Notes under the pieces: generated by a model
The model's database searches: none
The model's input: the letters and a program-made list of their open reading frames with translations, nothing else
What the model was told of the DNA's origin: nothing
Position numbers and translations under genes: made by a program
From: Escherichia coli
GTDB lineage: Bacteria; Pseudomonadota; Gammaproteobacteria; Enterobacterales; Enterobacteriaceae
Direction: 5' to 3' (one strand)
DNA: 64,000 nucleotides
Assembly: GCF_016026235.1 (NCBI RefSeq)
Contig: NZ_CP065613.1
In this document: piece after piece, positions 15,858-16,709 of the stretch
How the letters are laid out: each line of letters starts with the position of its first letter
Position numbering within the stretch: the stretch's first letter is position 1

Positions 15858-16162
15858 ATCCAGCTTGCAATGAAAATAACGCAAGTCTAGTATGTGCGCG
15901 TTTTCTCATTCCACAAACTGCAAGGAGGTAAATCATGACAAATCCTTTATCAATGACTCTTTGCAGACCTTTCCAGGATTAATTCTTTTTTTCTTGCCCT
16001 GGATTCGTCTGCCATTTCCTGATTTTTATATTTATATACTCTAAATAATTCGAGTTGCAGGAAGGCGACAAGCGAGTGAATCGCCAGGAGCTTACTAAAG
16101 TAAGTGACTGGGGTGAACGAACGCAGTCGCAGTACATGCAACTTGAAGTATGACGAGTATAA

Positions 16163-16429
16163 ATGGAATGGTACATGGGCAAATATATTCGTCCCTTATC
16201 CGATGCGGTATTTACCATCGCATCTGATGACCTGTGGATCGAGAGTTTAGCGATCCAACAATTACACACCACGGCAAATTTACCCAACATGCAGCGCGTA
16301 GTGGGGATGCCAGATTTACACCCCGGACGCGGCTACCCGATTGGCGCGGCGTTCTTCTCTGTTGGTCGTTTTTACCCGGCAAGACGTCGCGGTAACGGTG
16401 CTGGAAACCGAAGCCGGGCGTTATCCTGA
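16163..16429 (+). pseudogene. ykfJ: RtcB-like RNA ligase N-terminal fragment (ykfJ-type remnant)
   Basis: First ~65 codons resemble RtcB N-terminus (…[19 protein letters not shown]…), then frame runs into unrelated sequence. Confidence 0.65.
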
Positions 16430-16709
16430 CACGCTGCGTTCGTCGGGGCCGGGCGGTCAACATGTCAATAAAACCGACTTGGCGGTACGCGCCACGCATC
16501 TGGCATCCGGTATTAGCGTGAAGGTTCAGTCAGAGCGCAGCCAGCATGCTAACAAACGGCTGGCGCGATTGCTGATTGCCTGGAAGCTGGGGCAGCAGCA
16601 ACAGGAAAATAGCGCGGCGCTGAAATCGCAGCGGCGAATGTTCCATCACCAGATTGAACGTGGCAACCCGCGACGGACATTTACAGGGATGGCTTTTATC
16701 GAAGGATAA
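16341..16709 (+). pseudogene. prfH: Peptide chain release factor homolog, C-terminal fragment with GGQ motif
   Basis: Translation contains [40 protein letters not shown]-terminal half of a release-factor fold is missing. Confidence 0.75.

Follow-up and report, generated by a model that had tools for sequence, protein, structure and literature searches.

In Pseudomonas aeruginosa the RtcB-like RNA ligase ArmZ (PA5471) is encoded beside a prfH gene (PA5470), and both armZ and PA5470 are controlled by a leader peptide, PA5471.1, which is responsive to ribosome stalling (PMC12057347). Stalling at PA5471.1, a peptide with Gln as its third residue and Phe as its fourth (PMC13041342), regulates armZ (PMC12057347, PMC13041342, PMC3884212), and a 2025 review considered anti-repressor regulation by a leader peptide to be apparently unique to MexXY (PMC12057347). 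According to recent structural and biochemical work, RtcB2-PrfH alone among known systems both rescues ribosomes cleaved by toxins and re-ligates them. Here we describe a stretch of 64,000 nucleotides (nt) of Escherichia coli DNA (NCBI RefSeq assembly GCF_016026235.1, contig NZ_CP065613.1), referred to as the window, in which the remnants of an rtcB2-prfH operon are preceded by a 15-codon open reading frame (ORF), the mini-ORF. We consider it likely that the mini-ORF is the enterobacterial orthologue of PA5471.1, that it is efficiently initiated, and that the mRNA reads its translation to control the rtcB2-prfH rescue and repair operon.

The mini-ORF is located on the plus strand at 15935-15982, encodes MTNPLSMTLCRPFQD and ends in a TAA at 15980-15982. 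It is preceded by the Shine-Dalgarno (SD) sequence AAGGAGGT (15922-15929, plus strand) with a 5-nt spacer before the ATG at 15935, and thus agrees with a preliminary description of this DNA, made from the letters alone, which had noted a near-consensus SD and a 15-codon ORF at this position. The ORF lies 192 nt upstream of the rtcB2 ATG in the window and 63 nt upstream in strains free of an ERIC-type repeat. The 171-nt stretch from the yafP stop codon to just past the mini-ORF was present at an identity of at least 95% in 5391 of 5426 E. coli genomes. A comparison of the window with five strains sampled down the identity ranking (O26 11368, AR_0104, IAI39, 319 and 2900) found the SD and all 48 nt of the mini-ORF identical in the six sequences, the single-nucleotide polymorphisms among them being confined to the promoter spacer, the 5' untranslated region and the T-run after the stop. 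Intact operons were located behind the mini-ORF in O26 11368, AR_0104 and IAI39, which have an annotated full-length rtcB, and in 120899 and JJ2434. With its strong SD and its conserved start, frame and stop, the mini-ORF is a candidate for translation, corresponding to 253,239-253,286 in MG1655.

Leaders from other species were collected by two routes, the first of which went from PrfH homologues and their contigs to the regions upstream. An SD-preceded ATG ORF was found upstream of rtcB2-prfH in 10 of the 10 proteobacterial loci reached via the PrfH protein, and the leader was 13 to 15 codons long in every gamma- and betaproteobacterial locus examined. The peptides included those of Citrobacter (MMTHYKNSICRLSQE), Klebsiella (MNTDFQNILCRPSQE), Salmonella (MTIHSLNALCRHFQD), K. 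aerogenes (MNKYCLDSLCRPSQE), Cronobacter (MTYSTLITLCRLTQE), Pragia (MQQLEISTLCRRIQG), Pseudomonas sp. PDM18 (MQALITLCRSRLA), P. aeruginosa (MIQFSTLCRLRLA) and the betaproteobacterium Niveibacterium (MTYRCHSLCRSCPV), and a leader was also found next to the operon in Kosakonia, Budviciaceae, Kangiella, Aquitalea and Sideroxyarcus. Upstream of P. aeruginosa rtcB-prfH is a 13-codon ORF, MIQFSTLCRLRLA, whose third and fourth codons specify Gln and Phe, exactly as in PA5471.1. Using the intact JJ2434 alleles, E. coli RtcB2 was 61% identical to ArmZ and E. coli PrfH was 61% identical to PA5470, in both cases over the full length, while the E. coli and P. aeruginosa leaders were bridged by intermediates in Pragia (MQQLEISTLCRRIQG), Cronobacter (MTYSTLITLCRLTQE) and Pseudomonas (MQQLITLCRSRLA). 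Taken by sequence and position, the E. coli mini-ORF is the orthologue of PA5471.1; because leader peptides are too short for a statistical score, this homology rests on position and on the flanking conserved RNA motifs.

The second route was a pattern scan of 100,044 species genomes in which only TTTGCAG, GYCTGCC and the rtcB2 start TGGNNNATGGGCA were fixed and the SD, start codon, frame, length and stop were left unconstrained. Sixty matches were obtained, 44 of which were then followed by an RtcB2 N-terminus and were taken as true loci. All 44 contained an SD and an ATG, with the same spacing (7 nt after AAGGRR) in 38, and 43 of the 44 species genomes had a Leu/Ile/Phe-Cys-Arg frame in which precisely four codons separate Arg from the stop. 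Leaders were 13, 14 or 15 codons in length and comprised 28 distinct peptides. The SD context (G)CAAAGGRG was kept in all homologous leaders, and codons 2-8 diverged freely without insertions or deletions within families. Since SD, ATG, frame, length and stop were kept though the pattern did not constrain them, the mini-ORF is more than a chance ORF. Conservation of the mini-ORF beside intact prfH-rtcB, the check proposed in the preliminary description, was thus positive in five intact E. coli strains and in other genera.

The frame was different in Neptuniibacter caesariensis (locus nt 1008-1173), where a 13-codon ORF kept the UUUGCAGG nucleotides in another frame and encoded the peptide MTYAITFFAGQIL. 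Unless it is an assembly error, this difference argues for conservation of the RNA over the peptide. In E. coli I3 (locus nt 788-1500) the end of yafP was lost through an IS1 insertion together with the promoter and leader codons 1-9, the sequence resuming at ...TGCAGACCTTTCCAGG; this strain already carries the K-12-type deletion of the operon. The preliminary description had held that intact-locus strains lacking the mini-ORF, or a disrupted frame in close relatives, would speak against a regulatory element. Neither was seen apart from two minor departures, the IS1-disrupted copy, in a strain in which the operon was already dead, and the other frame in Neptuniibacter.

No leader of the Leu-Cys-Arg (LCR) type was found at three distant PrfH loci (36-45% identity). 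Judged from these three samples, the range of the element may be limited to Gamma- and Betaproteobacteria. A JGI metagenome contig (nt 67-3109) carried a distant rtcB/prfH pair with a PrfH of 36% identity and two small ORFs between the genes. With a T4-type portal fragment and a large He_PIG protein alongside, the pair may belong to a ribosome-repair module carried by a phage.

Leu-Cys-Arg was always encoded as (C/A/U)UU-UGC-AG(A/G) without synonymous variation, with rare Arg codons whose third base covaries with its partner in the helix P1 described below. Given the lack of synonymous variation and the Neptuniibacter nucleotides kept in another frame, the conserved motif is probably RNA rather than peptide, and the ORF most likely matters as a track for the ribosome rather than through the peptide it encodes; nothing points to a specific arrest peptide. 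The retention of LCR in nearly all homologues would also be expected if the product were a micro-protein that functioned in trans through these residues on RtcB2, PrfH or the ribosome. This is very improbable, as the residues outside LCR vary widely (28 distinct peptides), Leu gives way to Ile or Phe with the UU unchanged, the third base of Arg follows its P1 partner, the ORF is unchanged where the operon is dead and a Q3K substitution keeps regulation in P. aeruginosa (PMC13041342).

The same observations raise the opposite explanation, in which the element acts solely as RNA structure, for instance as a small RNA or as a leader that binds a protein or ligand, and the ORF is incidental and untranslated. 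CUUUGCAGR is kept at the nucleotide level without synonymous changes and in another frame in Neptuniibacter, and P1 and a further helix, P2, account for much of the conservation. Under this explanation, however, there would be no reason for the spacing of SD and ATG, the ORF length and the stop four codons after AGR to be kept in 43 of 44 loci when the search did not constrain them, or for codons 2-8 to diverge freely without insertions or deletions within families. Mutations that alter leader translation also alter armZ expression in P. aeruginosa (PMC13041342), and we regard an untranslated ORF as improbable.

A candidate sigma-70 promoter was located upstream of the leader on the plus strand (15865-15893), consisting of a -35 TTGCAA (15865-15870), a 17-nt spacer, a -10 TAGTAT (15888-15893) and the GC-rich discriminator GTGCGCG. 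A promoter scan of the leader region returned no promoter at threshold, the candidate scoring 8/12 against the consensus, and the call therefore rests on conservation across species. Among 49 distinct upstream sequences from many genera, 45 had TTGNNN-N16-18-TANNNT ahead of the leader SD, at a distance of 17-42 nt (mostly 24-36), with a GC-rich discriminator after this promoter-like motif. The -10 element was TAGTAT in the window and in intact-operon strains and TGGTAT in the deletion-type strains AML001 (K-12-type), 319 and 2900. TGGTAT loses the key A at position 2, which could reflect promoter decay after operon loss, and an overlapping TATGTG could provide an alternative -10.

Since the element begins 78 nt after the yafP stop codon and contains a hairpin followed by U-rich sequence, it might also be taken for the terminator of dinB-yafP, with the mini-ORF arising by chance. 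This explanation is exceedingly unlikely given that the element travels with rtcB2, following dinB without yafP in Citrobacter, Salmonella and Cronobacter and lying behind unrelated genes in Pragia, Pseudomonas and Niveibacterium. It also possesses a conserved promoter-like motif of its own and was not called as a terminator.

The leader RNA contained the predicted helices P1 and P2 and a candidate helix, P0. The 5' arm of P0, UGCAAGGAG (15919-15927, plus strand), overlaps the leader SD and complements CUCUUUGCA (15957-15965). P0 appeared in the minimum free energy (MFE) structure of the naked RNA, where GCAAAG was paired with CUUUGC from the Leu-Cys codons. Neither sequence varies in any of the species, which leaves no covariation by which to assess the helix, and P0 would exclude P1 because they share a GCA. 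The 5' arm of P1 (15963-15977, plus strand) is formed by GCAGAC (15963-15968) and UCCAGG (15972-15977) within leader codons 10-14, and its 3' arm (15998-16012, plus strand) by CCUGGA (15998-16003) and GUCUGC (16007-16012). P1 was the RNAalifold consensus on 23 Enterobacterales, and its six bottom pairs were 100% paired in 38 sequences from both classes, four of the six being fixed by the search pattern and hence uninformative. Pair 5 was G-C in 20 of the 38 sequences, A-U in 16 and G-U in 2, and never A-C, and pair 6 was C-G or U-G.

P2 links the end of the leader to the rtcB2 start. Its 5' arm is the anti-SD CCAUUUCC (16012-16019, plus strand), which abuts the 3' arm of P1 with one C in common and complements, with one bulge, the 3' arm GGAAUGG (16165-16171, plus strand). 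The latter is separated from the rtcB2 ATG by 3 nt and, as the only SD-like sequence there, is presumed to be the weak SD of this gene. The motif GGAWUGG-N3-AUGGGCA was kept from E. coli to the betaproteobacteria, and species with GGAUUGG had CCAAUCC-type partners, an A-U to U-A exchange which was found in Enterobacteriaceae and again in Kangiella. Covariation in P2 was evaluated by per-sequence duplex energies, as column-wise counting fails where the bulge shifts between clades. By this measure the 5' arm preferred its own type of 3' arm (GGAAUGG or GGAUUGG) in 17 of 21 distinct arm pairs, with 3 neutral and 1 in disagreement. The predicted helices P1 and P2 were therefore both conserved with compensatory changes.

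Other pairings were examined and rejected. An outer helix UUGCCC:GGGCAA involving rtcB2 codons 2-3, present in E. coli folds with a terminating ribosome, was lost without compensation in Budviciaceae and the P. putida group. A helix CAGGA:UCCUG joining leader codons 13-14 to the end of the anti-SD was not conserved beyond Escherichia/Salmonella, and a pairing of CAUUCC (15906-15914) with the rtcB2 SD (16165-16171) in the MFE structure of the window was absent from other genera and is probably due to chance.

The influence of a translating ribosome was modelled by treating it as a block of unpaired nucleotides and computing the free-energy cost of opening the rtcB2 start region (-13 to +6). In 26 of 28 species a ribosome placed at the leader stop made opening costlier than one placed at the leader start; the mean difference was +2.9 kcal/mol. 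Shuffling the segment from the leader stop to the end of the P1 3' arm reduced the difference to 0.0 compared to +2.8 for the native sequences, and 30 of 228 shuffles reached the native value. For E. coli, placing the P-site on codons 1-5 gave a cost of 8.6-9.4 kcal/mol and placing it on codons 6-15 one of 11.3-13.7 kcal/mol, with 10.8 kcal/mol for the naked RNA. The direction of the switch and translation as the level of control in E. coli are inferred.

In the proposed switch, the conserved and probably constitutive promoter would make the leader RNA, and healthy ribosomes would load on the strong SD, translate the 15 codons and terminate, melting the 5' arm of P1 in codons 10-14. The downstream segment freed in this way would extend the anti-SD helix P2 over the SD and start codon of rtcB2 and keep the operon off, and secondary transcription termination may follow. 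Ribosomes that cannot progress, for instance through cleavage of their 16S rRNA by colicin E3 or CdiA or under the influence of drugs that target them or of amino-acid analogues, would sit at or near the leader start. P1 would then form and lock the segment that reinforces P2, such that the rtcB2 start opens and the repair enzymes are made. The direction of this model agrees with the activation of armZ by stalling or an early amber codon in PA5471.1 (PMC13041342) and with the accumulation of colicin E3-cleaved ribosomes at start codons (PMC13166195). In K-12, ykfJ was inducible by the translation-perturbing analogue 4-azaleucine, going by the citation of Morita 2006 in PMC3516279, as would be expected from a still-functional leader before dead genes. 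The preliminary description had suggested a possible translation-sensing regulatory element, a proposal which gains support from the experimental study of the P. aeruginosa homologue PA5471.1 in this role (PMC12057347, PMC13041342).

The same leader might instead control transcription, through Rho acting in a pyrimidine-rich, G-poor stretch or through an intrinsic terminator, with SD sequestration by P2 being secondary. The published P. aeruginosa model is one of transcription attenuation (PMC13041342, PMC12057347), and the region 15983-16030 is C/U-rich with a U-tract and may be rut-like. This alternative is nonetheless rather unlikely, in that the window leader has no terminator-like site on the plus strand, the U-tract lies 8-10 nt from P1 and inside the P2 loop, and P2 pairs precisely with the rtcB2 SD and covaries. 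The two levels of control are not mutually exclusive.

Several points weigh against the mini-ORF as a translated, PA5471.1-like switch. The counts over the 44 species genomes overstate independence, as the sequences are phylogenetically related. The mini-ORF is not annotated in MG1655, and neither its peptide nor its coordinates were found in the one ribosome profiling supplement of Stringer et al. that was searched. The conserved LCR motif, being probably RNA, also belongs here. For Pseudomonas the published work describes attenuation of transcription by means of a terminator (PMC13041342, PMC12057347), and a terminator scan of 15300-17300 returned no terminator-like site on the plus strand; this lowers the case for the same mechanism in detail and not for the same element. 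The predicted switch was absent or weak in Klebsiella, K. aerogenes, Kangiella and P. otitidis, and a thermodynamic scan of the long P. aeruginosa leader was uninformative and gave no match to published mutant phenotypes. A stop at codon 8 of PA5471.1 is also reported to de-repress (Morita 2009), which the model in which P1 is masked by the ribosome would not predict.

A broader proposal sees in the leader a self-contained sensor dedicated to ribosome damage and conserved across the gamma- and betaproteobacteria, and in the antibiotic induction of MexXY via ArmZ in P. aeruginosa a later co-option of an ancestral repair circuit. We put this forward tentatively, as possible rather than probable. 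Ribosomes whose 16S rRNA was cut by colicin E3 or CdiA-type toxins would still bind the near-perfect SD and be unable to leave the start codon, and the parked ribosome would refold the mRNA with P0 open, P1 closed and P2 weakened. A few intact ribosomes would then make RtcB2 and PrfH, which would repair the damaged ones.

In the window the genes behind the leader were degraded, and their remnants occupied the chromosomal site of the rtcB2-prfH operon between dinB-yafP and pepD. An N-terminal RtcB2 fragment of 69 codons, the 'ykfJ' pseudogene (16175-16381, plus strand), was 98.7% identical to nt 1-207 of JJ2434 rtcB2. The match ended at 16381, from where the reading continued out of frame to a stop at 16429. 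The ATG at 16175 is the conserved RtcB2 start, and an in-frame upstream ATG at 16163 was without conservation in other genera. The PrfH remnant (16382-16709, plus strand) was without its first ~30 codons and without 63 internal codons, and its GGQ survived at 16452-16460. The two parts were in differing frames (16175 mod 3 = 2; 16341 mod 3 = 0). Pfam identified RF-1 in the PrfH remnant (E=2e-22) and RtcB in the fragment at E=4e-5, which is under the curated cut-off and covers only the N-terminal 35 profile positions. Both fragments were classed as pseudogenes by PGAP in this genome, and they carry the names ykfJ and prfH in MG1655. Frames, Pfam and PGAP were thus in accord with the RtcB-like N-terminal fragment, joined out of frame to the GGQ half of a release-factor homolog, that had been recognised in the preliminary description.

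The intact E. coli loci of 120899 and JJ2434 encode an RtcB2 of 379 amino acids and a PrfH of 204 amino acids with overlapping stop and start codons. A functional module, with a full-length RtcB2 of ~379 amino acids that retains the catalytic core and a translationally coupled PrfH of ~204 amino acids, was not present in the window. The internal deletion of rtcB2-prfH inferred earlier was borne out, although alignment of the window to the intact loci by BLAST revealed two deletions, of 1027 nt and 189 nt, rather than one. The junction of the 1027-nt deletion (16373-16381) joins rtcB2 codon ~70 to prfH codon ~31, with the flanking alignments overlapping by up to 9 nt, and is common to the K-12-type locus. 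A ~1000-nt deletion of K-12 and O157:H7 was described by Baranov et al. 2006 (PMC1586002), and the 1027-nt lesion is, as judged from its junction, the known K-12 ykfJ/prfH deletion. The second deletion, of 189 nt, is in-frame and within prfH, and its junction (16427-16445) lies between 19-nt direct repeats (DTLRS / ETLRS codons). Among 5426 complete E. coli genomes only 32 had this junction as a contiguous sequence. The pseudogene pair is therefore already known biology with the exception of this second, rarer deletion. The RefSeq note on the rtcB pseudogene of E. coli 2900 states that mutations compromise drug-inducible mexXY expression, and this appears to be P. aeruginosa ArmZ text carried over.

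This strain resembles K-12 in retaining an intact sensor in front of genes, once under its control, that deletions have destroyed, and the leader is a well-preserved relic. Because the downstream genes are dead, the practical message for the window is modest.

A 124-nt ERIC-type repeat (16034-16157, plus strand), absent from the account in the preliminary description, was located within the P2 loop between the mini-ORF and the rtcB2 start. Its core matched the ERIC consensus with 1 mismatch, and the repeat is an imperfect, intergenic palindrome which formed its own long hairpin in the MFE structure. The site was empty in JJ2434, while 120899 had a short form and both K-12 and the window had the full-length repeat, and a 1-kb query matched 3-12 places per genome. 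Core, palindrome, intergenic location, multiple copies and variable presence all identify it as an ERIC repeat. At permissive thresholds Rfam returned only a sub-threshold V_AS5, which corresponds to the ERIC repeat, and no known Rfam family covered the leader. The repeat is a passenger outside the conserved regulatory element and need not break P2.

The gene order of the region was lafU, dinB (14353-15408), yafP (15405-15857), the mini-ORF, the ERIC-type repeat, the RtcB fragment, the PrfH fragment and, on the minus strand, pepD (16766-18223). The dinB gene ran directly into yafP with overlapping stop and start codons (14353-15857), where K-12 has the yafN-yafO toxin-antitoxin pair in between; yafN-yafO was also absent from the intact-operon strains 120899 and JJ2434. 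Upstream of dinB were a full-length lafU (924 nt; window 13326-14282 and upstream) and motA of a lateral-flagella (Flag-2) cluster, and lafU was shorter (786 nt) in K-12-type strains.

The leader family is known from P. aeruginosa and the pseudogene pair is known from E. coli, while the enterobacterial leader is a new addition. In the literature searched there was no report of the leader in E. coli or other Enterobacterales, no link of the leader to the work on RtcB2-PrfH repair and no description of the conserved P1 and P2; Morita 2009 was not covered by this search, and a prior mention is possible. The rtcB2-prfH papers PMC9304027, PMC9223846 and PMC13166195 make no mention of a leader or of native regulation. 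PA5471.1 has been studied for 15 years in the Pseudomonas resistance literature as a peculiarity of MexXY regulation. The literatures on the repair operon and on the MexXY leader concern one conserved unit, comprising promoter, leader ORF, P1, P2, rtcB2 and prfH, which is present in at least 44 species genomes. For E. coli this provides a model for the induction of ribosome repair by stalling or damage, with defined helices and an unannotated candidate for a translated ORF in MG1655.

Compared with the rtcB2-prfH operon of E. coli ATCC 25922 (PMC9304027, PMC9223846, PMC13166195), the window holds remnants at the same site, but its genes are truncated and out of frame like K-12 ykfJ/prfH and have lost a further 189 nt. 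The closest likeness of the leader is to PA5471.1. In both, a short ORF with its own SD in the same context (GCAAAGGAG) is co-oriented with and upstream of an orthologous RtcB-like gene followed by prfH, and a promoter-like motif is found at a similar distance upstream. Both have an (S/T)LCR motif from CUUUGCAGR with four codons from Arg to the stop, TLCR being common to the two, and the downstream motifs GYCUGCC and GGAUUGG-N3-AUGGGCA. The two differ in that the E. coli leader has 15 codons rather than 13, and the distance from leader stop to gene is ~63 nt in ERIC-free E. coli and roughly 215 nt more in P. aeruginosa. A terminator has been proposed in P. aeruginosa whereas none was predicted in E. 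coli, and the predicted output in E. coli would be the repair operon only, whereas P. aeruginosa ArmZ is also an anti-repressor of MexZ.

More distant counterparts are leaders of the ermC/ermD type, in which antibiotic- or stall-sensing ORFs expose a downstream start by translational attenuation, and tnaC and the topAI leader toiL, which act through control of Rho termination. As in these systems, ribosome occupancy of a short upstream ORF would select between pairings that hide or expose a downstream SD. Unlike ermC/ermD, tnaC and toiL, the leader described here has no apparent specific arrest peptide or drug specificity and its conservation looks RNA-driven, and the proposed signal would be a general failure of ribosome progress, rRNA damage included.

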